Virus record (IMG/VR): IMGVR_UViG_3300044451_000434
Span: 1 to 64,000 of that record
Origin: a virus
DNA length: 64,000 nt
Strand: one strand, 5' to 3'
The translations under genes and the position numbers were made by a program. Numbering within the stretch: position 1 is the stretch's first letter; each line of letters starts with the position of its first letter. Shown one piece after another: positions 1 through 64,000 of this stretch. The notes beneath the pieces were generated by a model that was not told the origin of the DNA, searched no databases, and worked only from the letters and a program-made list of their open reading frames with translations.

Positions 1-3000
1 AATCTGTTTCACATGCCTCTCCCCCCTGAGGCGGCTGCGGCTGCTGACCGCATGGATAGGGCGGTAACCTAAGAATCTTCCAATTCAAGTCTCCAGAAGC
101 AACTCCTATAATTGACTTGGGATCATTGAGAGACATCAGACATGGTCGAACGCATACAGTGTGCGGAGCCATCTCACAACCATAAATTACCTCCCTATCG
201 GCTTCGGGAGGATTAACTCCATTTTCTATCAAGAAAGACACAGGAACCATCTGCTCCCAACATATTTCTAATTTTTCCCAATCGATGTTGCCGTTGCACG
301 GCATTGGATAAGCAACTTGACCAGTACCAAAAGCCTGCTGCTCAGAGACTTCATTTAATGGGTATGAAACAATAATTCTGTACTCTCCAACCTGATATTT
401 TGTTTCAGTTTGGTCGTATGAAGACACTTCAACATAGTATATTTGATTGGATAATGTATTGACATCTATAAGAATACCTGTTGATGCAAAAAAACTGTTA
501 TCTGGCGGCGATGTATGATCTCCATTTTCGTCAAAATAAGCCCTGTATATCGGTTTCAAATTAATGTCTGTCAAAGACTCAAATTTTACCAACTGCCTTT
601 CTTCATTGTATATGCGTATAGAGCTGCGAAGTGTGCTTATTCCCCTAGGTTCGATACATATGTCAACTATGCCATTAATAGGCGCAACAAAAGAGTAAAG
701 ATCAGTGTCACCAATGCCAGATATGACTCCTATCGCAGTGGAAACAAAAGCTTCAACCCCATCATTAGAAGAGGCTCCTCGAATTGGCAGCATCCCACTT
801 ATTCTTCTTACCGAGAATACGGGCATGACTGCAGCATAATCAAATTCACCAGCATCAGCATATCTGTCTTCGTCAGAAAGCTCTGGGAATGAGAGTTCGT
901 TTTCTGTTGCTTGATCTGCCTCTGCACTTGGATCAAATTCTGTACTGCCGTAGTAAAAATTATCAACTATCCTTGCTGCCACAATTACTTGATATGGAAA
1001 GCGTGTTTTCCCTTGACGAATCGAGATGGTGTTATCTAGCTCATCAGTAGCTGCCAAAGTATCCACAACCCCAATATCAGCACTAGTTATAACGCTGCTG
1101 CCAAGCAGAGTTACTATATCACTTAATGGTCTGAAAGGATCTTCAGATCTTGGAGCCAATCTTGCATAGCCAATACCAGACGATATGTTAACAATACGGT
1201 CATCTATCCTCACAGGGAATATTTTTGTTCCCTTCCTTTTCCTTCGCCTAAATATATTACCAGTTCCTCCTCCGCTAGGAATGCCTCCAGTGCCTACCGA
1301 CAGCTCTTCTAAATCATTACCTTGAAATTTTATGTAGCCATCAAGTTCTACAACAACATCATCATCAAGAGGTCTACCCTCATCGTCGAAAACCCTAATC
1401 CTGAGATCAACTCCAGAAATTCCATCTAGCCTAGCACTTGCCTGGACATCCTCAATTCTTAATCCATCCTGTATAGGCTGAACATTGGACTCAGTCTGTT
1501 CTCCGAACGCTTCGACTGCAATTTGGCAAAATCCTGGCGCCTTGCCATTGGTTATGCCTCCAGAAACCATAACCAAAGACTCTCCGTCCCAAGTGGATGC
1601 TAGCAACAACCTGCCACCAATAAGAGACCTTCCTTGAGATTTAACATAAAGACCGTTGGATAACTCAAGTATTTCCATTCTCTTGGTGGCATTGGTTCCA
1701 AGATATTTTCCAATTGGAGGAAGTTTTCCACCAATGATTATTAAAGTGCCATCGCAATCAACATGCGCAGCCTTCCCTCGAGGATCAGGTATATCAGCAA
1801 AAATAGAATCTGCAGAATATATATCAAACGGTCTAGCAGTACTTGTTGAAGAACTACTAGAAGAATTGTTGCTTGAAGAAGAAGAAGAAGAAGAAAGTGA
1901 ACTAAAGTAGGAGTCAATATTTGACACATCAAACATGAAAGAATCGGCGAAATAAACCTCCCTTGATTCCTCAACGGTTACTACACTATCCGCATTCCCA
2001 AATGTATAGGAAACCTCTTCATTGATTATACTGCTTCCCCCTGTAAATGCCCATTTAGCATCATCAATTTTTACAGCTGCAGGATACAAACGACCATAGG
2101 TGGCAAGATCGTTATCAAGAACCAAGAAAGAGCCAAGCCACTTATTAGCTGATATGCTGAAAATATGAACATATTTAGAAACTTCTGCAACCTCTAGTAC
2201 GTTTTGCTCGACATTGCTTGCCCCACACAGGGCAAAAATGTAGTCTCCAGCAACTATGCACTTCCCGAACGCATGACCATGTCTAATAACAGGAGGTGAT
2301 CCAGAATTTGATCCTGAGCCACCGAAACCTCCAGAAGAGGGAGAAGGAGGCAAATCAGTTCTCTGTGGCAGGGGGGGCATCTCTTGCCACTCATCTGCCT
2401 CTATACTATATCTGAAGAAATAACTTGAACATTTTGGTTTGTAACCTCCTGAAGAGCCAGATCCGAGGAAAACCATTTCAACTCCGCCAACGACATAGAT
2501 GTATTGATCGTCGTTTGCTACCGACATACCCATCAATGGCTTCGGCATTTTGGCGCAACTTTTCCACCTGTTCTCTGATGACGACCACCGCTCCATGTAG
2601 TTGGTCACTCCAGCAGATGTCAATCCTCCTATAGAGTAAAAATGACCATGTGCATACGCCATCCCGTGCCAGCATTTCTTGAAACCCATATCTGCGGTTC
2701 TTGTCCAACCGCTGTCTGCATCATTAAGGTCGTGTATGTAGCATGTGGCTGTTAGTGGCAAGACGATCTCATTTCTAAAAATCAGACCCGCCTCATCAGT
2801 CAATTCTGAAGGATCTGGGCGTGGTATAGGCGATCCAGAAGATCCATCACCCGAACCTCCGTCGCCACCTCCGTCGCCACCTCCGTCGCCACCTCCGTCG
2901 CCACCTCCGTCGCCACCTCCGTCGCCACCTCCGTCGCCACCTCCGTCGCCACCTCCGTCGCCACCTCCGTCGCCACCTCCGTCGCCACCCATCAGCGCTG

Positions 3001-9034: not shown

Positions 9035-9045
9035 TTCTAAACCTC

Positions 9046-9088
9046 TATTTCTGCAAAATTATTCTCTACCCTCGCCAAATGATTTATC
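9046..9088 (-). promoter_or_regulatory. Conserved intergenic motif, copy 1 (candidate late promoter or operator)
   Basis: Minus strand ATAAATCATTTGGCGAGGGTAGAGAATAATTTTGCAGAAATA resembles the 30774-30817 intergenic sequence. Confidence 0.5.
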
Positions 9089-9094
9089 GCTATT

Positions 9095-12000
9095 TTAAGT
9101 AGACAAATCGTCTATGTCTGGTATTTCAGACACCGAAATTACCAATTTAGGTATTCTTGTTGGCAAGCCAATTTCCAAAAGTCCTTTAATAGGTGGATTT
9201 GAGCTTGAGCTAGAACTCGAAGATCCAGATTGGCTACAGCAGTCTTCTGGAATGTCTAGGATATCACTAAGAAATTCACATACAGACAATTGAGAGAACT
9301 CGAAATTCACTATAGAGAAACCAGAGCATGGACCATCATAGGTTGCCAAAGAAACATATGGATTGTCAGTATCTATCCGACTCGATCCAAGTGGCGCAGA
9401 GAGTATTTTAAACATATCAATCACTTTAGAAGTGCGATATATTCTTGTGTAAGAATTATTGGTGCATATTGAAGTCACGCTCAAAAAAGTATCATCGTTG
9501 AGATTTTCAAGCTCTACAATAATCGCTGCTACATCAAGAGTAACACTAGAAGGTATGCATGGCGTCTCATAAGCATAACTGCTAGAAGACGAACTTGAGG
9601 AACTGCTTCTTGAAGATGAAGAACTGCTGCTCGAAGATGAACTTGACGAATTGCTGCTAGAAGATGAGGAATTGCTGTTAAAAGATGAAGAACTACTGCT
9701 TGAAGATGAACTTGAGGAACTGCTGCTTGAAGACGAACTTGAAGAACTCTTGCTAGAACTACTGCTAGAGGAGGACAAATAACTACTAGATGACGAACTA
9801 GATGATGAACTTGAAGACGAAAAATCAGTAGTTATTAGTGGAGGACTAGAGGTGTCTGTCACAAACCAAGCTCCTCCGTCAGCGTCCATATTTATTAAAC
9901 CAACTCCTGTTTCATAAAGTTGTATACTATCTGATGATCTAGTAACGCGCCACACCCATTTGCTAATGTTTTGTCCAGCAACTGCTTGAGCGCCGCTTAC
10001 GATAAAATCCGAATTAAAAGACAGGCGCTGATTAGCCGCAACATACGGCGAGAAGCCTCCAAGACGCTCGTTGATGTCTATTAGTATAGAATTTATTCTT
10101 GAAAAAGTATCTGCCCTCGAATTTTGAGGGAATTCATCTGGCTCCCAAGAATATATATGATCAATTCCAGTTATGCACGCATGACGCAGCAACTCGTCCC
10201 ACATGGAAGAATTCACAAAACCAACTTCTCCACTATCGTCGCCATCCCACGACCTTGGAGCTATCCATGGCCTGATCGGCGAACCGCCACAGCTTCTGTT
10301 GATGGCACGCAGGGTCTGCAGAGCCAACAAAAGAGAATTCCAAGGAGTCCGTCCAAAGGGAGTCGTGGTGGCATTTGACTGGTCCAGGCGAACTAGCCTT
10401 GTGGGGTCATCAGTTGCCACAGAGTATGTATTTGGAAAATACCATTGACCGTAAAGATAGGGAGAAGAAGCATTGCCAGCAAGACCCTGCTGCATGTCAT
10501 AATGCCCGTTGGCGTCATAGGAGTGGTCCCATGGGGCAATAGAATATGCATGGTAGTTTGTCATGCTCAAACCTGGATATTGAGCCTTGCCTATTGGCAT
10601 AAATGCCTCGTAGAGGTTTGCTGCATCAATAGCAGATACACCGCGATTCCAATAGTGATATGCAGGGGTGTTTTGGGGGTGTGGCCCAGAAAGACTGCTT
10701 ATCAATTGTTCCAATTGAGCGTTAAAATCAAAACGACCGCCATCGGTGAACCAGTATTTCCAAGAGGCAACGCCAAACCAAGACTTGGAGAATTCTGGCC
10801 TATTGGCATATGAATTAACCCTGTCTGCATCAAGACTCCAGTTGGTAAATATCCCCCTCATTTCGTAATCAAAAACCAAATGATCGAGTGGAGCACTTTG
10901 GTTCTTCAGGGCTCCTACGATGGTTGTCCAGGCATTCTTTACAGCAGTGACTCCGTTGGAGGCCCATATGGAAGGAACGTTCACTCCACTAGAAATGACA
11001 AATTGATCTGGAGTACCAAGGTTGTCATAGAACATTCTCTTGTTGACGCCAGCTTTATAGAAATAATGCATACGAAGAGATCGCATGCCAGATGGAAGTT
11101 TTTTGAGCAACGACACAACCGCGTTGAACCTATCTGTATTTATGAATGTTGCAGGGGCACTCTGACCACCATCAGTGAAGGTACTTGTGCTAGTGGGTCC
11201 GTACAAGGGAACAATAGGCTTGACATATGTGTACATTGTCAAATCCGCAGACGTTTGATCTATTACATCAGCATCCAAGCTTGCAGACACTGGGCCACGC
11301 CAGGTACCAGCCCAGATTGGGCGCACAATCCGAGTTGGATCTGCAGTCCTGTTTGCAAGCTCTGAAACCATCGACTGAATGTTGTAAGAAGCTACATATT
11401 CGGCCTTGGCAATCGATGAACACGTCACCGTTCCAAGCTCCCAGCATGTCTTTGAGAAAATGGCGCCACCAACAAGTGGACAACCTGCGAAATCAGATCT
11501 CTTCAGATCTCTTTCTATGGCATCAAATATGAATCCATCAATTTTGTGCCTCATGAACGGCTGTATGCAAGATGAATTGAATTGAGATTTTGACATCTTG
11601 CAGTTGTGCGTCGCGTAAGAAGGAATGGTAGGAAAAATAAATACGCCAATATTGGTGACATATATAGGCCTGGGTGTTTTCTTTGATTGGCTGTAGTGAT
11701 GCAGTATGGCGTCTGTTGCCACACCCACCTTGGTAGAAATTTGTTGCCTGCTTATTATGGTTGGGGATGCAGGCGTGCATTCAACAGCAACGAAATCAAC
11801 CGCGTCTAGAAGAGGCCCATAAGCTTCCGATATGCGTGTTGCAACACCCTGCCTTGCCCAAGATGAACTCTGCCTTATATCGACATTGGTTTCTGCTGAG
11901 ACAAACCTCGATGACTCAAAATAGGCAGCCCCGACATTTCCATTTATTGTAAAATTACCAAGCCCACAGATACCAAATTTTACAGATGGATGGATTGTCT

Positions 12001-28426: not shown

Positions 28427-28427
28427 T

Positions 28428-29930: not shown

Positions 29931-29932
29931 AT

Positions 29933-30751: not shown

Positions 30752-30773
30752 TTAAAAATTCCTGACAAAATGT

Positions 30774-30817: not shown

Positions 30818-30829
30818 GAACTACTAAAC

Positions 30830-44340: not shown

Positions 44341-44382
44341 ATGGTTTCAGCCCGATACAGCATTTTACAAACATGCGGAGAA

Positions 44383-49394: not shown

Positions 49395-50851
49395 AATGTC
49401 ACAACCTGTACAATTGATGTATTATTTACAATCACAATCTTGTTGAAATTGCCCACAGAAACCGCCAAATTGCCAGATTTCAAAAATCTTACAGAAGAAA
49501 CAGGACCACCCATGAATCCAATTGATGTCAGAACTCCTGTCGATATTCTGAAAGCATTACCTGTCTGATCAAAGACAAAAACACCACCAGAATTAGCAGC
49601 CAATTTAACCGCAACCTGATTGGTGGTGGTACCGACGAAGACATCTGTCACTCCAACTGGTGATACCGCTGCAACATGCATCTTTTGTTGGATATCTTCC
49701 AAAGAAAAATAATACAAACCTTCAAATTCTGAAATTGCAATCGGTTTAGATGGAACAAATCCCAAAAATACCCTTGAATCTGTAATTTTGTAAAGCCTGA
49801 ATCCTGTATTGTATGGCTCTACAGAAACTATAGACGATTGCGTAGAAAGTTCAAAAAAATTAGAACTATCACTCAAGACCTGTACGGTTTTTATGGTACT
49901 CATGATTTCTCTCGGCTTATTACACCCGACGTCTATGGCTGTCACTGCGACATTCTTGACTCCGTCGCCTTCTGGCAGTGTGATTACATTGTCCAAGAAA
50001 GGCTGTCTTGGTTCTCCCTCATAATCCAAAACAATTTGACCATTATCATATCTGAAAATATTGAACTTACATGAAGAAACTGAAGTGGTTTCATCAAATG
50101 CATAAAGTTTGGCAATAATATCTTTAGAGTTGACATACAGAGCACCTTGAGCAAGTTCAATACTCAAATCTGGGCCTATTGTGTCCAATACGAAAGTTCC
50201 AGTGTTTCTGATTTTTAATTTTTCTATATTAACTGCAGAAGATATTCTATTTGCAGAGTCTCTTGTATATAGGGATATCATGCCATCATCGCAATTACCA
50301 ATCCTGCTTAGGTCTATAGAATATCTGTCTAGAAGCCTTACGGAATCTAGTATTGGGAATTGATAGATGCCTAGACTCTGACTTGAAAAATTCACAAACA
50401 ATCTCACATATTTATGTGTAGATTTCATTCTACCAAGATTGAGTTTAATAAAAAATGATCCGTTCAATTCTTGACCTGCTATCGGTTCCAAAACCTCAAT
50501 TTGATCAAGTTCGAATCCGTAAATTGAAACTGCTGAACGGTTAAAAGATATTTCAGATCTAAATCCATTTGAAGAAACCAATCGCACCCCTATATGCACT
50601 GAATTAGAATTCAAATAACTTGGCGGCAACCATGAAAATGAAGTTGATTGTGCAGGAACTGACGCAATAACTATCCATTTTGAATTTTGTGCATCTTTGG
50701 CATCAAGATTTAATGTTGTTAATATTTCAAATGTATAAGAGGCAATTTGAGAAGCCGTTAAAGAAGGTGAAAGCCAAGATATATCAACATTGGTGCAATT
50801 AATAACACTGCCGCCAACAGGCGTCAAAATGGAAGGACGAGGCACTGTCAC
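49391..50851 (-). CDS. Ig/FN3-like protein with short propeller-like C-terminus, 486 aa (GTG start)
   Basis: VDISWL..TSFSWLPP; LDTIGP..GALYVNS..DETTSV..LPEGDGVKNVAVTAIDVGCN matches the DTxPP..GDGxKxV..DxAGN Ig motif. Confidence 0.8.
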   Translation of the reverse strand: MTVPRPSILTPVGGSVINCTNVDISWLSPSLTASQIASYTFEILTTLNLDAKDAQNSKWIVIASVPAQSTSFSWLPPSYLNSNSVHIGVRLVSSNGFRSEISFNRSAVSIYGFELDQIEVLEPIAGQELNGSFFIKLNLGRMKSTHKYVRLFVNFSSQSLGIYQFPILDSVRLLDRYSIDLSRIGNCDDGMISLYTRDSANRISSAVNIEKLKIRNTGTFVLDTIGPDLSIELAQGALYVNSKDIIAKLYAFDETTSVSSCKFNIFRYDNGQIVLDYEGEPRQPFLDNVITLPEGDGVKNVAVTAIDVGCNKPREIMSTIKTVQVLSDSSNFFELSTQSSIVSVEPYNTGFRLYKITDSRVFLGFVPSKPIAISEFEGLYYFSLEDIQQKMHVAAVSPVGVTDVFVGTTTNQVAVKLAANSGGVFVFDQTGNAFRISTGVLTSIGFMGGPVSSVRFLKSGNLAVSVGNFNKIVIVNNTSIVQVVTL

Positions 50852-52083
50852 GAGTTCCTCCAGTAGGAGGCATCTCCGAACGCATTCTTCCTATCCTTGG
50901 GATCTGAAAATCCTCTGTAGGAAGGCAGGGGGCTATCATCTTCTGTCTTTATATTGTTTCCAAGACCTGCAAAATCTATTCCCTCAGCAACAAGATCAAA
51001 TCTAGTTATAGACATATCTATGCACTCATTTGGTACACTCGGATAGAAAGCAGCAATACCATCAGAAGTAAGAACTCCATCCGATATCAGTGGTTCGAAT
51101 TCTGCTTTGTAAACTCCAGCATCGGCATCTTCAGCAGACATAATCGAAGAGAACTTTTTGACACCTCGGGTTACCATATGAGCCATAATCTTGTCATTAT
51201 CTGAACCCAAGGCTCCTATAGAGCCAAGTTGTATAAGTCTCTTGACGCGCTCAGGCTGAAAAAACTTGAATCTAACCACCAACTTTTCTATTTCTTTTTC
51301 CTCACCAACCTCAAGAGCATCTATGTCGTCTGGAGTAGCCGCCCTACCCGACGGCATCACAATAACTTGTGAAGATATAACGGGGTACCCATTAAACCTA
51401 GGCGGATCTATTTCTAATGTTTCATCATTATCTTCGCCACTAGCGATCTTTACTTTAATGCTTGCTGAGTATGAAGGTGGTCGATAATTGGCCAAAACAT
51501 CGAGACTCATGGTTTCACTTCGCCCAAAAAAAGTCAAAACTTCTGCAAAAACCTGCTTTTGACCAGATGATGGACTGAGCACCCAAGGAACCAAAAATTC
51601 ATCCTTAGCGAAAAAAATAGGCCTGAATGCAGAAGCAAGATTGTTGTTTGTTATGGCGGATTTTTGACCAACCGCTATCCAGTCAGAGAACGCGACATCA
51701 TTCTCATTTTTAAGCCTTACTGCATATGTGCCAGGAGTTCCTATGATGCTGAGCATTACCATGCAATCTTCAACCTCTGCCACGAAACCGCCTTCACCAC
51801 TCGTGTCTATAAGTCTTGAGACATAATCCTTAGAAACACGCATCTTTAGAAATTCAGAATCAGAACTTGGAATCAACGAAGAGTTAAGAACATCCGTCAT
51901 CATACACTGACTAAAGGAAGACTTAGATTTAGGCGCCACTGGAACTATCTTACATGCAGAAGAGGCAATAACACAATCAAGACCAGAGCCATTCATAACG
52001 AACGATGTCAATCCCCCAGTCCAGTCGGAGACTGATCCAAGAGAAAAAGATTCTGGTCTAATTGGCGTTGGCATGGCTGTCAA
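50848..52083 (-). CDS. Hypothetical protein with Ig-like module, 411 aa (TTG start; ATG at 52074 is an alternative)
   Basis: AVRLKNE..FSDWI..PWVLSPSSGQKQVFAEV; 4-nt overlaps at both ends. Confidence 0.8.
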   Translation of the reverse strand: MTAMPTPIRPESFSLGSVSDWTGGLTSFVMNGSGLDCVIASSACKIVPVAPKSKSSFSQCMMTDVLNSSLIPSSDSEFLKMRVSKDYVSRLIDTSGEGGFVAEVEDCMVMLSIIGTPGTYAVRLKNENDVAFSDWIAVGQKSAITNNNLASAFRPIFFAKDEFLVPWVLSPSSGQKQVFAEVLTFFGRSETMSLDVLANYRPPSYSASIKVKIASGEDNDETLEIDPPRFNGYPVISSQVIVMPSGRAATPDDIDALEVGEEKEIEKLVVRFKFFQPERVKRLIQLGSIGALGSDNDKIMAHMVTRGVKKFSSIMSAEDADAGVYKAEFEPLISDGVLTSDGIAAFYPSVPNECIDMSITRFDLVAEGIDFAGLGNNIKTEDDSPLPSYRGFSDPKDRKNAFGDASYWRNS

Positions 52084-55000
52084 GAATCATACAAAGGCCT
52101 AGAACCACCTTCGCCGTCAACAGAAGACCACCTTCCAGAAGACGAATCGTAGGTCGAAAATCTGCACTCCGAACGGAAACCCGAAGGGTTATCTACACTA
52201 TATGAACTTCCTGCCCTCCCATCCTGCCAAGATATATAGAACAAGCCTAAATCAGAACCCGCTACACTCGGGTTTTTTGCATCAGATTGCAGGGAAGACA
52301 GGTATGATATTCTTCCGTCAACCCCTGACCAACTGATAGATCTTAAAAAATAAGAAGATGGATCGCACATTATCTCGGTATCACCTGAATCAAGTTGTTC
52401 AATAGAATTTGAGATTTTGGCTTCAACAGACACATAGTACCTAGTGTGAGGCAATATAGAAAGTCTCTGCAATTCAGAAACTCTTAAACTTGGTTCTATT
52501 ATTTCTGAAGAAATTGAAGACATGTCAGCAAAAGCAGATTGAACACTCGAAGGTGGGGAAAATCTAGGTATGAAACTAGCTGATATGGTGTTGCCTGGAT
52601 AGCACACAACGCCACCAGAGGGGAACGATCCCCTGCCCGCGTCCCAATAGGTGGGATAATTTAACGAATCAAACACAGCAATTGGATTTTTCTTTTCAGC
52701 ATCAGTGAATATTTTTGCCGTGAAATGAACCAATTTATTTTCAGAACCCCTATTTGTGTAAGAGGCTGGAACAGAACATCTTTGCTGCTTGACAAAAGGA
52801 CAGAATATGTAACCTTTCTTTTTTATAGACTGAGCTTGACCTGCAGCAGTTACAACTCTTATTTGGGTGTACATAGATTCAGATTTCTTTTTTACTCTGA
52901 AATCTATGGTGCGAAGATTTGCGCTGAGAGTAATGTATTCGCCATCAGCAAATCTTATGGCCCTTGATCCAGCAGACTCCCATTGCGTACCAGGCAGGCC
53001 AAGAATCCCATCAGTAACAGCCAAATCCGAAGGAGTGGCGACTATTGCAACTATTGGCGCAGAAAATGTTATTGTCGACTGAACAAATTCTTCCACATCT
53101 ATCGTGTTTCCAGAATGTATGACCTGTGTAGGTGCATGTATTATAAAAGATCTATATTGAGAACCAAATGCAAACCCTGCGATAGAAGTAACACCAGATG
53201 GCAGGGAGAGGTTAGAGGTTATCTCCCCGTTGATGAGACTTACATAGTCTGAAGGTTGCCTGCTTGGGAAAGACACAGGAGCAGAACCGGCACTTTCCTG
53301 CACAACAACAAGCCTGATACTTGCAGTTGTCACTGTTGGATTCGTTCCTGTGAGAACTCCTATTATAGATTGCCATGTGCTTTCATTTGACGAATCTAGT
53401 TGCTCCACATTTGGTCCTGATTTTTGACTTATGATGCCAACAGACTCCTGTTGAGTTGCAGAAACCATGGGCTGCAACTCAAGCTCCCATCTAATTACGC
53501 CCTGATTTTTTATATCTTGCGGTATTGAATCAAACTGGATTTCATAATCGTTAGATGCATCGAGTGCCTGACCCTCAGAACTTAATGTGTTTCCATTCAG
53601 AAGCCAGCCATTAGGATTTTGCGTTGATGATGCTTGATATAAAAGTTGTGAGCCGTCCTCAAGATAGAAATTGACAACAAACTTGAATGTTGATGTCTGT
53701 GTTGGTCTAACCGTAGCAAATACTCCACACCTAAAAAATCTAGTGGGCAAATATGGATCATAAGGATCAGCATCAAAAGTTCTTATGAAACCGACCGCCC
53801 TGTCTAGCAGGCAGCCGTCGGATATGTCTGGATCTTTACTACTGCTTACTGATGCTGCTATTCTTGAATTATTGCCGTTCCTTTCCTGCCATGCAACAAG
53901 CAGGCGCCCATCGCCATCAGCGGAAATAGACGGAACATTCGAAACATGATTGGGCCTAGATATAGCCTGTGAAACCTTCATAGCCTCATCCCAGTCTCTC
54001 ATCGAACATACATTTATCTGCCATGTGCCTGTTTCATTACTTTCATAGGCGACATGCAACTTTGCCAATTTATCAACAACTATGGCTGGACTCCGCTGAA
54101 TGCCTTCTCCTTGCCCAATCCTTGACACCGACAGCCCACCTGTAGTGAAAGGACTACCAAACTGACACACAGCAGGGAGCGCGAACACATACATTTCATC
54201 AACACTCTGTAGAGTGAATTCGTCATTCGCATACTCGGATGCAACGGCAGATACATGTTCTATAGCTATATTGCTTCTGAATGGATCTTTGTATGTATCC
54301 ACAATAAGGTCATTAATTTCTACAGTAATATTGGAGTTCTTCTGATATTTCAATACTCTTCTTGACAAGTTAGGTGCTGAAAGATAAACACGGAAGGGCC
54401 CTTGGAAGCAAACTATTGGGGTAGAACCTGCAACATCTTGCTCAGCTTCGCCACCTTGAATTAAATAACCATCAGCGTTAACAACTTTGGGGCTTTCAGT
54501 CGGATCAACTAAAGATGTGGCAAGAGATTTTGCGTCTGGTACATCAAAGCCGTCACCGTTTACTGCATGGTGATCTGACCGCAGATACAATTCAGAGCCT
54601 AGCGACAAGAATGTACCTGATGGCAGCGACAATGAGGCGCCCCAACTGACAAGTTGTCCGTCTTCCCTTAAGGCGACGCAATAGTTGCTGCCGCAACTCA
54701 CCGCGACAAATCTACCAGAAGGCAGCGAAGAAAGATCATGCCCACCAGGGGGCTCAACTCCGATGAATACAAGATTGCCTGTGCCATCCACACATACGGC
54801 AAAAGTAGAACCCACGGAAATGTCTCTCCACGAAGATCCTCGTGATGTAAGATCCGATGTAAAAGCCTCAACCACTGCGTCCTGTAATTCGACGTCAGGA
54901 GAATAAACTTCCTCAATCCTAACAAACCCCCTTAATATACCTGAATCTGAAATCATCAACATGATCAGCAAATAATTTAAACCATCATAACTGCTATGAG

Positions 55001-58000
55001 CGGCATTGGTCACCAAGGCAAGACAGCCACTATCCAAAGCATCACTAAAGAATTGTTTCAAGTCATCCGAAGATCCATCGGTTTGCAATTTGCCTTCGGA
55101 ATTAACATAAGCACAGCCATTGTCTGTTTCTGATATTTTAATATTCGCGGCACGCTTCTGATATAGTGGGTGGAGAGCAGAAAGACGAAGACTGCCGACA
55201 CCGGGAGTCAATTTGGCTGTTATTCCCATAAAATCATTTGTGCTTACCCTGACTATCTTGGCGCCCTGATCTCCGCCAAAAAACAAGAACGGACTGACCA
55301 TATCGACTGGACAAACTAGCGAACCGTCACCCCTATATGGCTCTATCCGCTTGGCACGCAAAAATATAGAATATTCAGTAGAGTCAGCAAACACTGCGCT
55401 TTGACTTATAGACCCAATTCCTCCGTGACCAATTTTGCCTCTGCGTACTTGATGCATCCATTGAAAATTGTAACTATCAGATTGATAAATCGAAGGAGAA
55501 AATTGGAAGTCAGAAGACGCATTCGGCTGAAGAACTACTGCTCTCGATTGACCTCCCTGCCTTGCAAACGACAGACCAGAATACATAAAACCTGTTGGTG
55601 ACGCCAACCAGTCATCAACTGCAGAAAAATTGAAAGCCATATTGATCCAGTCACCGGGATCTGAAGTCGCGCTCAAATAGTCTATGTTGCGAGCCTGTTC
55701 AAAAGAATTGGTCTGCTGAACAAATCCGCTTGGCATGCTCATGTCAAAAGCACTTAATTGAGAACCATTCGCCATAGACAACTTATTATCCGATATGTCT
55801 ATGGAACTTATTCTCACAGCAAATCTGCCTGCTGCCAAACCATTTCTGTAGCCAACGTCGTGATGGCGGAACCAAGATATCGAAGATATGAAAGACCCGA
55901 AACACAGGTCAAATTGTCTGCGACCATCAGAAACATCCACACGCCAATCGTGAGAGATTTGCGGGTCTCCGTTCGCCATGCAAAAAATCATGTTTCTGTG
56001 TGCTAACGGGACAAGATCTTCAGCTTTCTCTGGCCCTTCAAACCTGAGGGGATCAAGGTGTGCTCTAGATGTGCGTATGGCATGTTCGTGGTCTTTTATT
56101 AGCATGGATCCAACAGTCAACCTAAACTGTTTGGAAACATCTATGATGTGGCTTGACTCATGAATTTCAAACGCATATGGAACGCCGCCATTCCCAGATG
56201 AAGATTCGCTAGACACACAATATGCAACAACCTTTGCACGACCAGTATATGCTGTTCTCACCAACCCCTCATAATATCTATCACAAGACCCGCCAGCAGA
56301 CATAACTTCATTACACAAGTCATCCCAAGTTTGCGTATTCCTTGCAAAGAATCTGACTGTCTCAAGCATTACGCCAACAGTGTAATGACAAACCACCCCG
56401 TCGACACCATCAGCGGCAGGTCTTGTAAATGTCGATAAAGATGGAGTTCTCCAATACGATCCAACCATATCAGAACACTGAAGATTGAAGGAACTTGAAC
56501 CGCCACTTTCTAGGTATCCTAGTCCTGAAGTCTGAACAACCCCACTAGGGTTGTAGTGTATGTCGTTCAGTCGCAAACTAGAAATCAGCGGAATGAAGTC
56601 TGAAAATTCTCTTGCGCTCTTTCCTACTGACATGACGTTGTTATCAAAATTAAACAAACCATCATCTCGAACACTGAAGCCTCTCAAGAAATTCTTAAAT
56701 TCATCGTCCACTGCATCTTCAGAAGAATTTCTCAAGAATGCGCCTGTGCTAGGCATCTTTGTGTACACAAGCGCGTATTGCCAGTATTCTGATTGAGCAA
56801 TAGTAATTACAGCACTTCTTGCTGCATGCTTGACGAGTATTGAAGAATAAAATGTAGATGCATTATCTAAAGTCCTACTTGACAGAGATGCATGACGGCC
56901 CAAAACAGTACCGCGATCTGTTTCAACACCTAATATGTCTGTTGTAAATGATATAGAACATGTAGTTGGTCTATAATCTGGAGGTATTGCAACTAGATGG
57001 GCCGCTATGTAATCACCGACCCTGAAACCCGAAAGTTTGTTAGTGTCATCAGCCAATTCCGTATTTACAAAGATTCTATCTTGCTCGCCCCTGAAGAACG
57101 GAGATGTCCCATAGAAATCAGTTCTGATTTGCACTCCATCGCTAGCAGAAAAAACATCGGATATGACTGGATTGATTATTATTGCAGAGCCAGGCAGTAT
57201 GTGGGCATCAAATGAAAACGATGGCTGTATATCAATGTCTGCATCAACCATGTAGCCTATCGACTTATGTGTTCCATCAAACTGCCTTCCTGAATCATCA
57301 GTGTAGTATGGAATAATTGCGCAACATTTTGATTGAAGCGGACTGTAATCTAGGCACACCGAGTCTGACCTTGGCATTGCCACGGATGCCCCTGCATCTG
57401 CAACCTTTATCCACCCCGTCCTAATTGATATTGGAGTCGAGGATGCGGCAACAATCAACCTCACCTGGAAAATGTCGTCAACAGGATGAAGCATTAAGGA
57501 GAAATCAAAACTCTTCTTATCCGAAGAGAGTGTGAATTCGCCATTTGAAAAACTTGCACTACCTGCTCTGCTTGGGAATGTTATACCTGTAGGACTAAAT
57601 ATTTTGTCAGTGAAAGACATCTCAGACTTCTGCCCTGCTATTGACAATATAACTCCATTGAAAGATATTCTGCCACTGTATTGCTGATTTGAAGTATTGG
57701 CAGATGGGTCTATATGGAGGATAACAGTCTCGACTAGGTCTCCATTTGAGACTTGTTGAAATTGTGCTATATTCCCATCCGTGTCGAGCACATTGGAAAT
57801 AAAAGAACTTGGGTTATCTCCATCAAACATAATATTAAATGGACAGGCTCCCAAAAACTCTCTTTTTATATATGCGGAAGAAGACGGTATCACATTACGC
57901 AAAAAGTTTGAAGAGTTGAACGGCAACTCTAAAATTCCACTTGAAGACTCGAGCGACAGCACGGATGACACGCGTTTTTCTGGCGCAACAATAGGGCTTG

Positions 58001-60062
58001 TGTCTTCAGATGATGATCTACAGAAATCGGCAACAAGCGCTTTAGATGAAAATATAGGAGAATCTGGACCTATGACGGCATACGCAACAAAAGTGCCATC
58101 TCCGACATCTCGCTCCCAAGCTATATGCATGTTCCCATATCTATCATCAAACACGCGTGGGCGCCTATTATCTCCATTATAAGTCAGTTGCAGCCAAGAT
58201 CCGTTGGATGCCCGTTCCTTATCTATTGGAAGCTCAGAGTACATAAACAATTGGTTAAAGCTATCGACTTGACTCTGACACAACACGCGACAAGATGACG
58301 ATATGGCCGGATAAACACAGGATGCGGGTTGTCCAAGATTATCCTCACGAACATTCAAAGAAATTTCTGACACGGAGGCTGCTTCACTTTCCAAGCCAGA
58401 CAAGAACGCAACATGAACGCACGGGATGTCATCGGAAATGACTATGCCGCCCGGTCTGTTTATGCCAGGGCAAGCCTGAAGCCTCACTGAGTCTGAGCTA
58501 GATTTGACGTAAGAAAATACAGTACCCCTGAAGGGACCACTCAAGAATGCGAGCGTACCCATGTCGCTGACGCCATGTTCAGATAAATCTTTTATCGTGG
58601 TACACCTGAAAGTTGCCGATGCTCCACTGAATTGCTGAACAGTTATGGCGTTGCCACCCAAACTACTGAGAACCTGCCCAGCAAGAAGAGAGAACCTAGA
58701 CTCAGAATATACATCTATTCTATCATTAATAATTTCTGCATAAATCCCTGAAGACTTCAAGACGATGTCTTCGTTTATCTGGTCAGCAAGTGATTGCAAG
58801 GCAGAAGGAGACCATATTGCACTGAGAGATATCTCCTGACTTTCACGCAACCTTATAACTATAGCGGCGACTCCAGATGGATTTTGGTTTGGACGCACGG
58901 AATGCGTGAAGGCGGGAGGCTTAATAATCAGTCCACGTCCAATTGCCGCCGGCATCACCTTGGCTGCAGAAGATGAACTTGCCACAAAAACCTGTGTCAC
59001 AGGCATAGACTGCCTCACCGAGACATCGCAATCGCTAGCCTGCGAAGATTCTTCTATGTATGGCTTGCAGTATGAAACCCAAGCACCATGATTGAAGATA
59101 TTCAAACCCCTGTCATCCGAATCATGTGCAGGAAAAAGAGATGAATAAGACTGAGACTTAGGATCGAAGAATTTTGCAGCAACCGACACATGGTCGATGA
59201 GATTACACCCACCAGATATGGATGCAAACTTGCTGCTGAAACCTTCACCGACACTTATATATTGCGAGTCTAAATGTGTAAGTTCTTGCTCGGTTTCAGA
59301 CCCATAGGGGTCATACAGCCGACCAACAATAGCCAAATCAGAGCAAGGTGCCTCTTGAGATACAAACCTGAGACCTTGGTCTGGAGATGATGTTGGATCT
59401 AGAACCACACAACCAGGTCTTGCTGGATCATTTGTGGCGGCAAGTGTCCTCAGCACAGAAGGTACAAAGTGCACATCAGATCCACCGTAAAACCAGTTTT
59501 CTTCATTGTCAGATATGTTGATCGGAACACGAACCAATGAATATGCCGACATCTGATCTTGTGAGAAAATTTGGTTGGCGGTGAACTTAAATACAGACCT
59601 GCCTTTCTTGTTGGTGCGACCTGCATATTTCTTTTCTCCGATTCCTATTCTGAAAACTGACGAGGCAGGCCCGTCCACAACGATATTGCACTTGTCGCCA
59701 TGAGCCACAAATTCTGGAGAAGCGCGCACATAAAAATTTTTGCTCTTACCCGTTTTGGGCCTATTAACAAGGGTTGCACATATAGCCTCGGATCCAAATC
59801 CATCTTCCACATGGCAAAATATTGCGAAATCATCGCTAGTCGGACGAACCTTTACAACTCCAACAATAGACGCTGACTCAGCAGTTGATTTATGTAGCCA
59901 TGTCTTACCGCCATCGGTTGAGACTGGCAAAGAACCACCACGAGAGGCATCCTCTATAGAGAATTTGCAACCCACTGCGCCATCAAGATCTAAATTGAAA
60001 TGAACCTCCCTGCCACCTTGGTAAGATTTCACATCAGTAATGTAGAGTTTTGGCTGTTCCAT
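52080..60062 (-). CDS. 2660-aa multidomain structural protein (BNR-like blades, RCC1-like repeats, 2-3 copies of an internal beta module, two C-terminal repeat modules)
   Basis: RPRVFDDRYGNMHIAWE, SPAIVVDKLAKLHVAYES, PSISADGDGRLLVAWQE; RCC1-like DISVGSTFAVCVDGTGNL and AVSCGSNYCVALREDGQLVSWG (54640-54830). Confidence 0.9.
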   Translation of the reverse strand: MEQPKLYITDVKSYQGGREVHFNLDLDGAVGCKFSIEDASRGGSLPVSTDGGKTWLHKSTAESASIVGVVKVRPTSDDFAIFCHVEDGFGSEAICATLVNRPKTGKSKNFYVRASPEFVAHGDKCNIVVDGPASSVFRIGIGEKKYAGRTNKKGRSVFKFTANQIFSQDQMSAYSLVRVPINISDNEENWFYGGSDVHFVPSVLRTLAATNDPARPGCVVLDPTSSPDQGLRFVSQEAPCSDLAIVGRLYDPYGSETEQELTHLDSQYISVGEGFSSKFASISGGCNLIDHVSVAAKFFDPKSQSYSSLFPAHDSDDRGLNIFNHGAWVSYCKPYIEESSQASDCDVSVRQSMPVTQVFVASSSSAAKVMPAAIGRGLIIKPPAFTHSVRPNQNPSGVAAIVIRLRESQEISLSAIWSPSALQSLADQINEDIVLKSSGIYAEIINDRIDVYSESRFSLLAGQVLSSLGGNAITVQQFSGASATFRCTTIKDLSEHGVSDMGTLAFLSGPFRGTVFSYVKSSSDSVRLQACPGINRPGGIVISDDIPCVHVAFLSGLESEAASVSEISLNVREDNLGQPASCVYPAISSSCRVLCQSQVDSFNQLFMYSELPIDKERASNGSWLQLTYNGDNRRPRVFDDRYGNMHIAWERDVGDGTFVAYAVIGPDSPIFSSKALVADFCRSSSEDTSPIVAPEKRVSSVLSLESSSGILELPFNSSNFLRNVIPSSSAYIKREFLGACPFNIMFDGDNPSSFISNVLDTDGNIAQFQQVSNGDLVETVILHIDPSANTSNQQYSGRISFNGVILSIAGQKSEMSFTDKIFSPTGITFPSRAGSASFSNGEFTLSSDKKSFDFSLMLHPVDDIFQVRLIVAASSTPISIRTGWIKVADAGASVAMPRSDSVCLDYSPLQSKCCAIIPYYTDDSGRQFDGTHKSIGYMVDADIDIQPSFSFDAHILPGSAIIINPVISDVFSASDGVQIRTDFYGTSPFFRGEQDRIFVNTELADDTNKLSGFRVGDYIAAHLVAIPPDYRPTTCSISFTTDILGVETDRGTVLGRHASLSSRTLDNASTFYSSILVKHAARSAVITIAQSEYWQYALVYTKMPSTGAFLRNSSEDAVDDEFKNFLRGFSVRDDGLFNFDNNVMSVGKSAREFSDFIPLISSLRLNDIHYNPSGVVQTSGLGYLESGGSSSFNLQCSDMVGSYWRTPSLSTFTRPAADGVDGVVCHYTVGVMLETVRFFARNTQTWDDLCNEVMSAGGSCDRYYEGLVRTAYTGRAKVVAYCVSSESSSGNGGVPYAFEIHESSHIIDVSKQFRLTVGSMLIKDHEHAIRTSRAHLDPLRFEGPEKAEDLVPLAHRNMIFCMANGDPQISHDWRVDVSDGRRQFDLCFGSFISSISWFRHHDVGYRNGLAAGRFAVRISSIDISDNKLSMANGSQLSAFDMSMPSGFVQQTNSFEQARNIDYLSATSDPGDWINMAFNFSAVDDWLASPTGFMYSGLSFARQGGQSRAVVLQPNASSDFQFSPSIYQSDSYNFQWMHQVRRGKIGHGGIGSISQSAVFADSTEYSIFLRAKRIEPYRGDGSLVCPVDMVSPFLFFGGDQGAKIVRVSTNDFMGITAKLTPGVGSLRLSALHPLYQKRAANIKISETDNGCAYVNSEGKLQTDGSSDDLKQFFSDALDSGCLALVTNAAHSSYDGLNYLLIMLMISDSGILRGFVRIEEVYSPDVELQDAVVEAFTSDLTSRGSSWRDISVGSTFAVCVDGTGNLVFIGVEPPGGHDLSSLPSGRFVAVSCGSNYCVALREDGQLVSWGASLSLPSGTFLSLGSELYLRSDHHAVNGDGFDVPDAKSLATSLVDPTESPKVVNADGYLIQGGEAEQDVAGSTPIVCFQGPFRVYLSAPNLSRRVLKYQKNSNITVEINDLIVDTYKDPFRSNIAIEHVSAVASEYANDEFTLQSVDEMYVFALPAVCQFGSPFTTGGLSVSRIGQGEGIQRSPAIVVDKLAKLHVAYESNETGTWQINVCSMRDWDEAMKVSQAISRPNHVSNVPSISADGDGRLLVAWQERNGNNSRIAASVSSSKDPDISDGCLLDRAVGFIRTFDADPYDPYLPTRFFRCGVFATVRPTQTSTFKFVVNFYLEDGSQLLYQASSTQNPNGWLLNGNTLSSEGQALDASNDYEIQFDSIPQDIKNQGVIRWELELQPMVSATQQESVGIISQKSGPNVEQLDSSNESTWQSIIGVLTGTNPTVTTASIRLVVVQESAGSAPVSFPSRQPSDYVSLINGEITSNLSLPSGVTSIAGFAFGSQYRSFIIHAPTQVIHSGNTIDVEEFVQSTITFSAPIVAIVATPSDLAVTDGILGLPGTQWESAGSRAIRFADGEYITLSANLRTIDFRVKKKSESMYTQIRVVTAAGQAQSIKKKGYIFCPFVKQQRCSVPASYTNRGSENKLVHFTAKIFTDAEKKNPIAVFDSLNYPTYWDAGRGSFPSGGVVCYPGNTISASFIPRFSPPSSVQSAFADMSSISSEIIEPSLRVSELQRLSILPHTRYYVSVEAKISNSIEQLDSGDTEIMCDPSSYFLRSISWSGVDGRISYLSSLQSDAKNPSVAGSDLGLFYISWQDGRAGSSYSVDNPSGFRSECRFSTYDSSSGRWSSVDGEGGSRPLYDS

Positions 60063-60064
60063 GG

Positions 60065-61123: not shown

Positions 61124-61124
61124 T

Positions 61125-64000
61125 TCATGTGCTGATCATCGTCAGTCCAGGGAGGGTTTCTCGAGCGTCATGGATAATCCCAAGAGTTCCATTAGAAAGA
61201 TTTTCCACAACCTGTCCAAAAGAATCCACCCTAACAATCCTACCAGCACTTGAACCTATAGCGCTTTCAGCCACAAGAAAAAGACCATCAGCAGTCACGG
61301 AAACATCAGAGGCGTACAGTCCATCAGGACATGTGTACTGAAATGCCCTAGTTCCATCAGACTCGTTCACCACGACTACCCTACCCCTGTAACTCGCGTG
61401 CTTGGCAAGTGCCTGACCGACGAATGCATCAACCTCCCAAAAGTTTATCGGAGGTTCCGTTCCTGACTCAAAATCCACACCAGAAAGCAAAAGTCTGCCA
61501 TCGTCAAATATAACAGCACTGCCAAGAGTAAAATCAGAAACAGCAAAACTTGTGGCTCCACCAAACGCAAAAACTCCAGCCCAATCTGACTTTCTCAATT
61601 TGACAACGGTAGGTACAGTAGGCTGCTGACCTTCTTCTTCATCATCTACCTCCTCTTCAATAACCGTAATTCTCAATTGTATATCAGAAGGAGAAAAATT
61701 AGTCTCAACAAGAGTGCCATTGTCCTCCTGCTCAATACGAACCCGCAAATTTAGAAGATAGGTCGTTCCGACCATCGCTTGGGCGTTCGCACCTGAGGTT
61801 ATGGTCAATATGGAACTAAAAGCACGATCTTGTTTTACTTTGACAGTCCCAGAAAAAGCCGGAGTGCCCTGGAGCACAGGGGGGATGTGTCCGGGTTTTT
61901 CTGGATCATTGATGAAAGAAACTACGTATGGATTTCCATTAGGGTCTATTGATTGATCATCTGGGAATCGATATAAAACTCTAAATTCGAGACCATCACC
62001 TTCGGCAGCTATGTTGAGAAAATATTCGTCTGAGTCTGGACGCAAACCAGCACGTATCCTGTCAAAATTAATTGTACTGTTGCAAACTAACCAATAATCT
62101 CCAGCATCCTCAGCAGATACAGGATGGTACACTGAATTTAGGTAGGTGAAATCACCCACAAACAACCTAAGACCATTGAGTGTGTAATTTGCGGCAAGCA
62201 GACTAGAATTAGTATACGATGTTCTACCAACTACAGAAGGTTCCAATCTGCAGAAAATTTGCAAACCTGCGTCTCTTCCCTGGGTGGCAAGGAGCACTTT
62301 GTCGGTGGACAATTTTATCTGAAACACATTAGGTGGTCTACCATCAGTTATCACCTCATCAAGAGCATTTCCTTTAACCGAGGTTGATCCAATCACAAGT
62401 GTGAACTTACTCTTGTCTGCATTTGCTGCAAAAATTACATCGTCAGAAAAAACCATTTGTAAAATTCTAGTGAAGGGATTCAGAACAGCACACAATGGAA
62501 CAAACTGGCCTCCAGTTGGAAGAGGCTCTGCATTGCCGACGCCCCTAACGAATTTTGCGTCTCTAGATATCTGAAGAACTCTGTTATTGTATGTATCAGA
62601 AACTAAATAACTCTTATCTGAAACTCGTGATATTGAACTGACTTGGTCGAATCCAATAGTAGGCAATCCATTTGCAGACAAGACGCTAGATGGTCTTGAA
62701 GACTGAGAAGGAGATATGGGAAGATCAGCACCCATATATCCAAATTCTGAGAAAAGACTATCATCAAGTTGCTGTATAGAGTCGTTTGAAGCATAAAAAA
62801 TCTTTTTAATTTCTAGCGGAGGCTTAATTCGCACGCTAGCAAGACCAGAATTGGAATCAACAATTTCTGCATTACTCAATGTGCATAAAGACCATTGATC
62901 TCTGCGAGAAAAAACAAATCCAGATTCATTCCCAGTAGTTTTGATCAATATAGAAAAATCTTTGAATAATGGGGCTTCAGATCGATCACTATTTGCCCTC
63001 AAAGACACCTCAATATCCACTATCGTTGCAGAAACATTCAATAATTCTCCCGTTGGCGGAAGAGGCCCTTCGAAAAGCGCAGCATCCACATCTGCAAATG
63101 AATTCCCGTATCTGTATCGCAATTCAATAGCAGAAGTTGGGGGTATATTACTAGAATTCCATTCTATTGCCTGAATAATAAATGGGGAGTTTGCCACATA
63201 TCTGTAGCGTGCAAAGCCTGCTGCTTTAAAAATAACCTCAGTAGCACTCGCAGTGGATGTTCGCACATCGTCTATGTTGAAAGAAAAATCAACCGATCCA
63301 TCTTCTACCTCAAATACCATGGAAGTTATTGATTCGCGCTCAAATGGCGTGAGATTGTATTCAATCAACTTGAAGTTATCCATAGCGGGGTCTGAATTGG
63401 TGGTGATCTCATTTGCAGTGAGAACTATTGCTTTTGCAGTAGTGGTAGCAGTGGTATCTGTCGTGCCTTGGTTGATCAGGTAAAAAGAAACTACAGGGTG
63501 AACATCTGCTATGCACCTGATGTACATGAACAACTTGTTAAAATTACTCCAGTTGCTATTGCTTGATATTATTTTACGGAATATGACTTTGTTTTTCACC
63601 CCAGATCGCAATTTAACTGACTTAACTCCATCGGTTTGCACAGAAACATCACCACTGATACCAACAGTGCTTCCGATATTATCAACCGCAAAAGAAAAAC
63701 CAGGAACTCCAGAATCAGCGCCATTTTCAAAACTATCAGCAAACAAAACAGTCTCTTCATTTATTGTTGATGCAAGCGTGATCCCCGTATTTTCGCCAGA
63801 TAGGACAAATATGTTTTGGTGGGCGTAGTGAGACTTCAATTCATCTTCAGTGTCAAATCTGATGATGCTTATGGTACCTGCGGTCTGCTTTTTGCCTGCT
63901 ATACATCCGCTATTAGGTGAATAAACTGCGGTTGTGGCTCCGAAATCCACAATACTGTCAGTGGATGTGCCAGGAACATAAGTTATCGTGTTGACATGGT
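61125..64000 (-). CDS. Large structural protein with NHL-like propeller blades, >958 aa, 5'-truncated by the window edge
   Basis: The frame stays open from the track's GTG at 63950 to the window end, so the real start is probably outside. YLVSDTYNNRVLQI; ASDVSVTADGLFLVAES..GRIVRVDSFGQVV. IEWNSSNIPPTSAIELRYR..APLFKDFSI resembles a module in the 2726-aa protein. Confidence 0.85.
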   Translation of the reverse strand, partial: HVNTITYVPGTSTDSIVDFGATTAVYSPNSGCIAGKKQTAGTISIIRFDTEDELKSHYAHQNIFVLSGENTGITLASTINEETVLFADSFENGADSGVPGFSFAVDNIGSTVGISGDVSVQTDGVKSVKLRSGVKNKVIFRKIISSNSNWSNFNKLFMYIRCIADVHPVVSFYLINQGTTDTTATTTAKAIVLTANEITTNSDPAMDNFKLIEYNLTPFERESITSMVFEVEDGSVDFSFNIDDVRTSTASATEVIFKAAGFARYRYVANSPFIIQAIEWNSSNIPPTSAIELRYRYGNSFADVDAALFEGPLPPTGELLNVSATIVDIEVSLRANSDRSEAPLFKDFSILIKTTGNESGFVFSRRDQWSLCTLSNAEIVDSNSGLASVRIKPPLEIKKIFYASNDSIQQLDDSLFSEFGYMGADLPISPSQSSRPSSVLSANGLPTIGFDQVSSISRVSDKSYLVSDTYNNRVLQISRDAKFVRGVGNAEPLPTGGQFVPLCAVLNPFTRILQMVFSDDVIFAANADKSKFTLVIGSTSVKGNALDEVITDGRPPNVFQIKLSTDKVLLATQGRDAGLQIFCRLEPSVVGRTSYTNSSLLAANYTLNGLRLFVGDFTYLNSVYHPVSAEDAGDYWLVCNSTINFDRIRAGLRPDSDEYFLNIAAEGDGLEFRVLYRFPDDQSIDPNGNPYVVSFINDPEKPGHIPPVLQGTPAFSGTVKVKQDRAFSSILTITSGANAQAMVGTTYLLNLRVRIEQEDNGTLVETNFSPSDIQLRITVIEEEVDDEEEGQQPTVPTVVKLRKSDWAGVFAFGGATSFAVSDFTLGSAVIFDDGRLLLSGVDFESGTEPPINFWEVDAFVGQALAKHASYRGRVVVVNESDGTRAFQYTCPDGLYASDVSVTADGLFLVAESAIGSSAGRIVRVDSFGQVVENLSNGTLGIIHDARETLPGLTMIST

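Follow-up and report, generated by a model that had tools for sequence, protein, structure and literature searches.

The window analysed here comprises the first 64 kb (positions 1 to 64,000) of one 164,107-bp virus record of IMG/VR (IMGVR_UViG_3300044451_000434; 44% GC), and it is filled by an array of 16 open reading frames (ORFs), five of which code for giant proteins of 1777 to 4092 amino acids (aa). All 16 lie on the minus strand and tile the sequence almost without gaps (Table 1). Neighbouring window genes overlap by 4 nt at eight of the 15 junctions; at the others they are separated by 1-2 nt (four junctions) or by 42-78 nt (three junctions). The ORF list and the junction count uphold the description, given in an initial annotation, of 16 co-oriented and tightly coupled genes including these five giants; its remark that obvious signal peptides are absent also held, no hydrophobic N-termini being seen among the window proteins. 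Transmembrane-like segments were restricted to one internal stretch each in the 4092-aa protein and in the 352-aa glycosyltransferase (GT), and no internal repeats could be detected within the array proteins. The plus strand of the window contained only three short ORFs, each of them inside giant genes. Neither tRNA genes nor Rfam families were found in the window, and promoter-like and terminator-like sites showed no enrichment over shuffled sequence and did not mark the intergenic gaps. In related contigs the array ORFs are uninterrupted, and comparison with these relatives revealed purifying selection, with ratios of nonsynonymous to synonymous substitution rates (dN/dS) of 0.10-0.33 versus 0.06 for the large terminase gene (TerL). 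Since their orthologs are intact and under purifying selection, the array ORFs are real genes. The best reading of the window is that it forms the far 64 kb of a single long operon of late structural genes, belonging to a large, uncultivated tailed phage found in lake metagenomes.

A search of the flanking sequence placed TerL, a Mu-like portal and the major capsid protein on the same contig and the same strand as the array, so that the assignment to a tailed phage was confirmed. Transcription runs from TerL through the portal and a MuF-like fusion protein to the major head protein, and from there to a GT of family 4 (GT4), a protease-like protein, PhoH, the head-tail adaptor and a tube-like protein. 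An in-frame -1 slippery heptamer in a chaperone gene ahead of the tape measure is a hallmark of the G/GT system. Such a heptamer, GGGAAAA, is present in a 138-aa ORF, where the -1 frame past it stays open for 76 more codons; this signature points to a G/GT tail-assembly chaperone made by predicted frameshift. A 126-aa ORF separates the chaperone from a protein of 1033 aa with 17% Ala and not a single Cys, which by its composition and position is the candidate tape measure. Past this protein come those of 1515, 1357 and 1222 aa and then the remaining window genes, all of them acidic and with 10-16% Ser. Within the contig, the 18 genes after the tape measure take up 73.6 kb and code for 24,402 aa; with the approximately 1,130 aa that lie past the contig end the block reaches about 77 kb in all.

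In long-tailed phages, tail-tip, baseplate and fibre genes sit after those for the tube, the chaperone and the tape measure. Because the array starts directly downstream of the tube-like gene, the G/GT chaperone and the tape-measure candidate, on the same strand, we consider it probable that the tail tip, baseplate and fibres are its products, in a new lineage that is probably siphovirus-like and would have an unusually large adhesion apparatus, including at least one protease-fold domain. It is gene order only that suggests a location on the virion and a digestion of the host envelope. When the 164-kb contig was searched in six frames with Phage_sheath_1 (PF04984), Baseplate_J (PF04865) and GPW_gp25 (PF04965), nothing was obtained at E<=1 and the controls were positive. 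Therefore, the tail is probably non-contractile and siphovirus-like; the contig is incomplete and the lineage divergent, and a contractile tail is unlikely. Among the flanking genes whose presence had been proposed as a check, terminase and capsid genes were thus found, whereas sheath, Baseplate_J and gp25 were not. Neither Dit nor Tal was recognised by sequence.

We propose that in such an apparatus the 1222-aa and 1777-aa proteins would dock on the tail tip through a common N-terminal domain, and that the modules of the array proteins would be strung along flexible Ser-rich linkers, which the embedded GT4 and neighbouring GTs may O-glycosylate. The propeller and lectin modules would bind glycans or proteins of the host surface, and the protease-fold domain would either cut a proteinaceous host layer or mature its giant neighbours.

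Table 1. Genes and other features of the window, in coordinate order, followed by features elsewhere in the contig. Positions are those of the window unless a contig position is given; residue numbers refer to the respective protein.
Feature	Position	Strand	Remarks
Last giant, 3011+ aa (3011 aa in window)	2..9034	minus	Cut by contig end, full-length ortholog 4149 aa (L017); vWA-like metal ion-dependent adhesion site (MIDAS) residues 377-420; concanavalin A (ConA)-like lectin 608-745; linker (GGDG)x11 ~2016-2060; Kelch propeller ~2097-2225; poly-Ser 2381-2399
12-nt tandem repeat	2855-2989		Perfect, 11.2 copies, 100% matches; encodes (GGDG)x11 of last giant
4092-aa protein	9095..21373	minus	RCC1 beta-propeller ~residues 822-1350; poly-Ser 3852-3932, 4051
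571-aa protein	21370..23085	minus	No recognisable domain; order kept in relatives, 29% identity in L025
776-aa protein	23082..25412	minus	N-terminal ~260 aa alternating beta/alpha, TIM-barrel-like (weak)
1005-aa protein	25409..28426	minus	Predicted chymotrypsin fold ~114-435; poly-Ser linker 465-486; ~520-aa C-terminal part without assignment
500-aa protein	28428..29930	minus	16% Ser; no recognisable domain
272-aa protein	29933..30751	minus	No recognisable domain; 47% identity in distant relative
1777-aa protein	30830..36163	minus	Weak fn3 match 820-889; N-terminal ~75 aa shared with 1222-aa protein
2726-aa protein	36160..44340	minus	No domain detectable in Pfam, PHROGs, PDB sequences or GenBank phages
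337-aa protein	44383..45396	minus	No function assigned; 82% identity in close relative
1333-aa protein	45393..49394	minus	Poly-Ser tract 150-165
486-aa protein	49391..50851	minus	Very weak immunoglobulin (Ig)-like hint at N-terminus
411-aa protein	50848..52083	minus	Residues 156-263 resemble the 126-aa ORF between G/GT chaperone and tape-measure candidate
2660-aa protein	52080..60062	minus	One weak RCC1 repeat 1747-1809; dN/dS 0.22 over whole gene
GT4 glycosyltransferase, 352 aa	60065..61123	minus	Embedded in array
1222-aa protein	61125..64000 (gene to 64793)	minus	Window holds C-terminal 958 residues; docking-like N-terminus outside window
G/GT chaperone slippery site G GGA AAA (GGGAAAA)	L001:16415-16421 (contig 77414-77420)	minus	In frame, two codons ahead of stop of 138-aa ORF
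Tube-like protein, 334 aa			After head-tail adaptor; phrog_290
Major head protein, HK97-type		minus	phrog_2522, 2.4e-66
MuF-like fusion, 1904 aa	L003:28-5742 (contig 95427-101141)		Directly after portal; N-terminal MuF-like/head-maturation domain, phrog_2774, 1e-29; ~1700 aa beyond it without assignment; candidate packaged polyvalent protein
Mu-like portal	L003:6121-8331 (contig 101520-103730)	minus	phrog_16240, 5e-41; Pfam Portal_Mu; C-terminal DUF559/MTES_1575/HNH-type endonuclease-like domain (residues ~586-694), an unusual fusion
TerL		minus	Same contig; phrog_2, 1.5e-25
Three genes upstream of TerL	L004:502-6305 (contig 114701-120504)		Second, separate set of fibre-like genes; third gene with no more than a weak DUF2793 hint; C-termini of set unlike those of relatives
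tRNA-Arg(TCT), tRNA-Lys(TTT)	L006:5301-5376 and 5774-5846 (contig ~158.7-159.2 kb)		Decode A-rich codons

More than 90% of the array residues were left without an assigned fold, and the modules that could be recognised in the giants are mainly of binding type. The clearest ones are the two propellers: the RCC1 propeller of the 4092-aa protein was detected in Pfam with E 6.5e-39 and has BLIP-II/UVR8-like proteins among its matches in PDB sequences, and the Kelch propeller of the last giant gave a Pfam E of 6.7e-12 and likewise a propeller match among PDB sequences. In the same protein the ConA-like domain corresponds to Laminin_G_3, exactly at the Pfam cut-off, and the vWA match is a partial one to VWA_2, yet the canonical hydrophobic strand and the DxSxS MIDAS motif are present. 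From the binding modules originally proposed, the RCC1 and Kelch propellers, the ConA-like lectin and the vWA MIDAS motif stood, while the fn3 and Ig matches are weak. Searching at a relaxed Pfam threshold of E<=5 added nothing useful for the array proteins. The PHROG scan, which covered three giants other than the 2660-aa protein and all mid-size window proteins except the GT4, matched the stretch of RCC1 repeats in the 4092-aa protein to phrog_13857 ('tail protein', E 3.3e-05); beyond propeller-type matches on two giants, it gave just two matches of unknown function with E>=0.0025. With phmmer against PDB sequences, nothing was found for the 2726, 1777, 1033 and 1515-aa proteins, and only noise for the 1357-aa and 2660-aa proteins, in the latter case a weak RCC1 match. 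The 1777-aa protein had no usable match in the ESM Atlas. The approximately 75 N-terminal residues common to the 1222-aa and 1777-aa proteins are 35% identical and, judged by this similarity, are a candidate common docking domain. A DUF2793-type fibre N-terminus was also considered for these two proteins and was dropped, with no match in the contig.

A protease-like module lies in the N-terminal part of the 1005-aa protein. A word-indexed search with the whole protein gave nothing, probably because words of poly-Ser swamped the query; when residues 1-460 were used in an exhaustive HMMER search, 13 homologs were obtained. In an alignment of 11 homologs reaching down to 23% identity, Gln177-His178, His184-Tyr185 and Asp338 are invariant, and Asp261 together with Gly346-Asp347-Ser348 is conserved in at least 90% of them. 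From the T-x-x-H spacing, His178 looks a better catalytic candidate than His184. The predicted model of the protein displays the double beta-barrel of the chymotrypsin fold. In comparison with PA-clan S1-like proteases, the domain has large insertions, is placed N-terminally in a presumed structural protein and lacks a match to Pfam Trypsin or Trypsin_2; with all Pfam families at E<=5, only low-complexity noise appeared. Moreover, Protein Z and HGF, which are protease-like and non-catalytic, score equally well, and subunits of umbrella toxins, which are no proteases, are also among the Foldseek matches. Regarding the intact trypsin triad listed in the initial annotation, the fold and the conservation of His, Asp and Ser speak in its favour, whereas neither Pfam nor PDB sequences provided a protease match. 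A chymotrypsin fold with an intact-looking triad is thus supported by the model and the alignment, and the protease activity is putative.

Two homologs of this domain come from T4-like phages (L022:10001-14365 and L023:3111-6308), in which they are encoded directly after gp23, and the T4-like homologs stand beside, or are fused to, a Phage_TTP_2 tail-tube-like domain. Since the T4-like homologs adjoin gp23 or the tube-like domain, the protease-fold family appears to be tied to phage structural modules independently of the lineage described here. The family is common to unrelated aquatic phages.

The initial annotation had also attributed to the array several barrels resembling glycoside hydrolases (GHs) and a glycan-degrading capacity. 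Neither claim could be upheld: no GH, lyase or beta-helix family was detected in any array protein with Pfam at E<=5, and a single weak TIM-barrel lead was left, in the 776-aa protein. ESM features placed this protein near DUF4434/GHL10/GHL13 clusters at 0.85, a range that serves as a lead only. Its AlphaFold2 model is poor, with a predicted local distance difference test score (pLDDT) of 35; along its first ~260 residues strands alternate with helices, and the best Foldseek rows were all TIM barrels with E>=1.2e-3, which are chance-range scores. One TIM barrel in the 776-aa protein is possible according to this model. The protein shares a paralogous domain of about 350 aa with the 1333-aa protein (residues 351-663 and 425-766, respectively).

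That the array contains its own glycosyltransferase was upheld, the GT4 exceeding the Pfam cut-offs (E 3.6e-13; Glyco_trans_1_4, 50.4 bits against a cut-off of 27; Glycos_transf_1, 45.6 bits against 26.4). It is a paralog, with 25% identity, of the GT4 that adjoins the capsid gene. In a close relative, the region straight after the last giant (L018:6211-12123) codes for a GT-A/TAGT-like enzyme, GT4, GT2, GT4, GT2 and a metallophosphoesterase, and then comes a helicase, whereas in the present phage the equivalent region is past the contig end; the first GT of this series bears a weak resemblance to TET-associated DNA glycosyltransferases. Poly-Ser tracts occur in four window proteins, and the linkers they form are positionally conserved in relatives, the one after the protease-fold domain being kept at 43% identity. 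The alignments to relatives break exactly at the GGDG repeat of the last giant (residues 2015 to 2073), and therefore the length of this linker is probably variable among strains. Since the embedded GT4 and the five downstream GTs go together with Ser-rich segments, we put forward the hypothesis, by analogy, that these enzymes O-glycosylate such segments. Dedicated GT4 enzymes are known to glycosylate the serine-rich-repeat (SRR) adhesins of bacteria. The likeness to the SRR and mycobacteriophage systems consists in GT genes lying within a structural operon beside Ser-rich segments. According to Freeman et al. 2023, as cited in PMC12619734, the mycobacteriophage GTs glycosylate capsid and tube proteins. 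Unlike in the mycobacteriophage system, the targets here would be internal poly-Ser linkers instead of the C-termini of capsid or tube proteins, and what is seen is an association of GTs with poly-Ser tracts.

In order of relatedness, TerL is 88% identical in three IMG/VR contigs, and in two of these the array genes are present as well, following one another as in the window with 75-88% identity; the 2660-aa protein is 85% identical in two IMG/VR relatives. In a more distant relative, the 180.5-kb metagenome contig L025, the order 1790/241/493/1011/763/566/3410+ aa is kept at 26-47% identity. Because L025 preserves the gene order at this level of identity, the module, as far as gene order tells, belongs stably to the genome and defines the lineage rather than having been added recently. 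A 173-kb IMG/VR contig whose TerL is 52% identical had no detectable homolog of the 2660-aa protein. Within the fixed gene order, whole domains are gained and lost. In the ~40%-identical ortholog of the 4092-aa protein in L025 (L025:14009-22291), residues ~770-1320 with the whole RCC1 propeller are absent; the ortholog of the same protein in the close relative L017 has an extra 4.2 kb near its C-terminus (L017:5019-9239), with more than 300 Ser and tracts of up to 46; and the 1333-aa protein measures 1897 aa in a close relative, with an insertion of ~560 aa at the poly-Ser site. Downstream of the 2660-aa gene, the IMG/VR relatives L012 and L013 continue for 4.6 kb and ~10.5 kb before they end, and the contig studied here ends inside the last giant. 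Assemblies seem to break repeatedly in this module, perhaps due to strain variation or repeats.

Outside this lineage, a tblastn search with eight array or tail proteins, or segments of them, against 50,697 GenBank phage records gave no match, which bears out the view that the array does not consist of close orthologs of a described phage tail module; the best match of TerL in the same records had 25% identity. An assignment of the phage to the 'Moraphages' (PMC12619734) was discarded, since these are T4-like and possess sheath, gp25 and gp6. No relatives of TerL were found in 185,579 prokaryote species genomes, and hence no host was assigned. The two tRNA genes of the contig hint that the GC content of the host is perhaps above the 44% of the phage.

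No terminal repeat was found in the 164,107-bp contig, which ends inside a gene, and CheckV estimated its completeness at 39%. Regarding circular closure, the sequence that follows the last giant in relatives matched the other contig end neither by blastn nor by tblastx. Therefore, the full genome is clearly larger than 164 kb, and a size above 200 kb is plausible. From the earlier proposal of a very large appendage of a jumbo phage, the phage nature was retained, whereas jumbo size is unproven for an incomplete contig of 164 kb.

Several observations weigh against the assignment of the array to the tail tip. The 1033-aa tape-measure candidate has no match in PHROGs, PDB sequences or GenBank phages and was assigned on composition and position. 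None of the array giants matches a solved tail protein in phmmer searches against PDB sequences, and the phrog_13857 match on the 4092-aa protein is weak and the sole 'tail' PHROG match among the window proteins scanned. The only PHROG matches of the contig to tail spikes, short tail fibres or virion structural proteins belong to two genes upstream of TerL (114701-118564), and the recognised receptor-binding proteins may be those at 114.7-118.6 kb. As for the proposed activities, the model of the protease-fold domain has a pLDDT of 64, a moderate confidence, and a family profile of this domain found no protease match among PDB sequences. In the window GT4 the EX7E motif is EGFCLPVAQ, where Gln takes the place of the second Glu, compared to EGFCLPYAE in the capsid-adjacent paralog, and the GTs could act on DNA or host glycans and not on the virion.

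If the giants belong to the virion, they could still be something other than tail appendages, namely decoration fibres of the capsid or neck, or packaged cargo that is ejected into the host in the manner of the giant proteins of crAss-like phages and the polyvalent MuF fusions. The 1904-aa MuF-like fusion that adjoins the portal in this same phage would fit such an explanation, as would the GT4 next to the capsid gene and the lack of tail-fibre homology in the giants past one weak 'tail protein' PHROG on an RCC1 repeat. However, the array begins after the tube, the G/GT chaperone and the tape-measure candidate and not in the head block, it is made of lectin, propeller, fn3 and vWA modules and Ser-rich linkers, which are typical parts of exposed adhesins, and Pfam scans detected no nucleic-acid enzyme or toxin domain in it; we therefore regard decoration or cargo as quite improbable. 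Even less credit can be given to the idea that these are late proteins outside the virion, with a role inside the infected cell, on its surface or following lysis, for example as released adhesins or as enzymes remodelling the host surface or matrix, with GTs that modify host glycans or phage DNA. The weak resemblance of one downstream GT in a relative to TET-associated DNA glycosyltransferases agrees with it, and in the absence of signal peptides a release would need lysis; but the genes are translationally coupled within a structural operon, they keep their order even where identity falls to 26-47%, unrelated phages also have homologs of the protease-fold domain in their structural modules, and to spend about 77 kb on late genes of no structural role would be costly and without precedent. 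It is very unlikely that this idea is correct.

A stronger version of the tail-tip assignment, in line with the initial annotation, would make the array a multi-enzyme depolymerase toolkit, in which several active glycoside hydrolases and a protease digest the glycan and protein layers of the host, with the branched depolymerase fibres of Klebsiella jumbo phages as a functional parallel. Its enzymes would be the chymotrypsin-fold domain with its conserved triad and the weak TIM-barrel/GH-like lead in the 776-aa protein, with the paralogous domain in the 1333-aa protein. Since no array protein shows a GH, lyase or beta-helix family of Pfam at E<=5, no matches were obtained in PDB sequences, the TIM-barrel scores are within the range of chance and over 90% of the residues have no fold, this version is unlikely. 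Somewhat more can be said for another extension, which we offer tentatively: that the array is the largest tail-tip organelle yet described and stands for a new architectural class, a glycosylated, linker-strung, multi-module apparatus for adhesion and enzymatic action. Its genes would occupy ~77-80 kb, and one copy of each protein would add up to ~25,500 aa, or roughly 2.8 MDa without any oligomerisation. Propellers and lectins would be joined in it to a vWA-like domain, a serine protease carried on the tail and, possibly, enzymes with TIM barrels.

Returning to the array as the probable tail tip, baseplate and fibres of a probably siphovirus-like phage, two kinds of known systems can be compared with it. 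In phages phiKp24, phiK64-1, RaK2 and CBA120/G7C, as would be the case here, many appendage genes are co-transcribed and several binding or enzymatic modules are present per virion, and an N-terminal docking domain is common to different proteins, which for our array is a candidate. Phage phiKp24 carries fourteen putative fibres with depolymerase activity in a hyperbranched system (PMC9700779). These branched-fibre phages differ in having, on contractile tails, fibres that are beta-helix depolymerases and are recognisable by homology, whereas in our contig no beta-helix or GH, sheath or baseplate family was detected, and the array proteins are mosaics of 2-4 thousand residues with propellers and lectins, eight queries from which remained unmatched in GenBank phages. 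With the siphovirus cassette of lambda, T5 and SPP1, the contig shares the succession of a tube-like gene, a -1 slippery site (GGGAAAA here), a long Ala-rich protein and the presumed distal tail genes; the G/GT site of lambda is reportedly GGGAAAG. Canonical siphovirus blocks after the tape measure range from a few kb to ~20 kb. Unlike these, the block described here extends over ~77 kb and 18 genes, and Dit and Tal are unrecognised by sequence. By analogy, the hyperbranched fibres of the Klebsiella jumbo myophages would be the closest functional counterpart and the canonical siphovirus tail cassette the closest architectural frame. New with respect to both are the scale of ~77 kb, the six proteins of 1.8-4.1 thousand residues, the combination of propellers, lectin and protease fold without a recognisable depolymerase, and the lack of sequence relatives among described phages.

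If the array proteins are indeed on the virion, nearly half of the 164-kb contig would be devoted to an adsorption apparatus, a share that, to our knowledge, far exceeds the tail-tip modules of characterised phages with non-contractile tails. In practical terms, the lineage offers binding and enzyme domains that are still unexplored, and it also points to a site where assemblies break. Were the assignment true, a chymotrypsin-fold family carried by phages, and shared with T4-like aquatic ones, would be gained, and the glycosylation of Ser-rich tail-protein linkers by enzymes of the phage itself could be tested on an actual case. The known range of phage host-recognition machinery would be widened.

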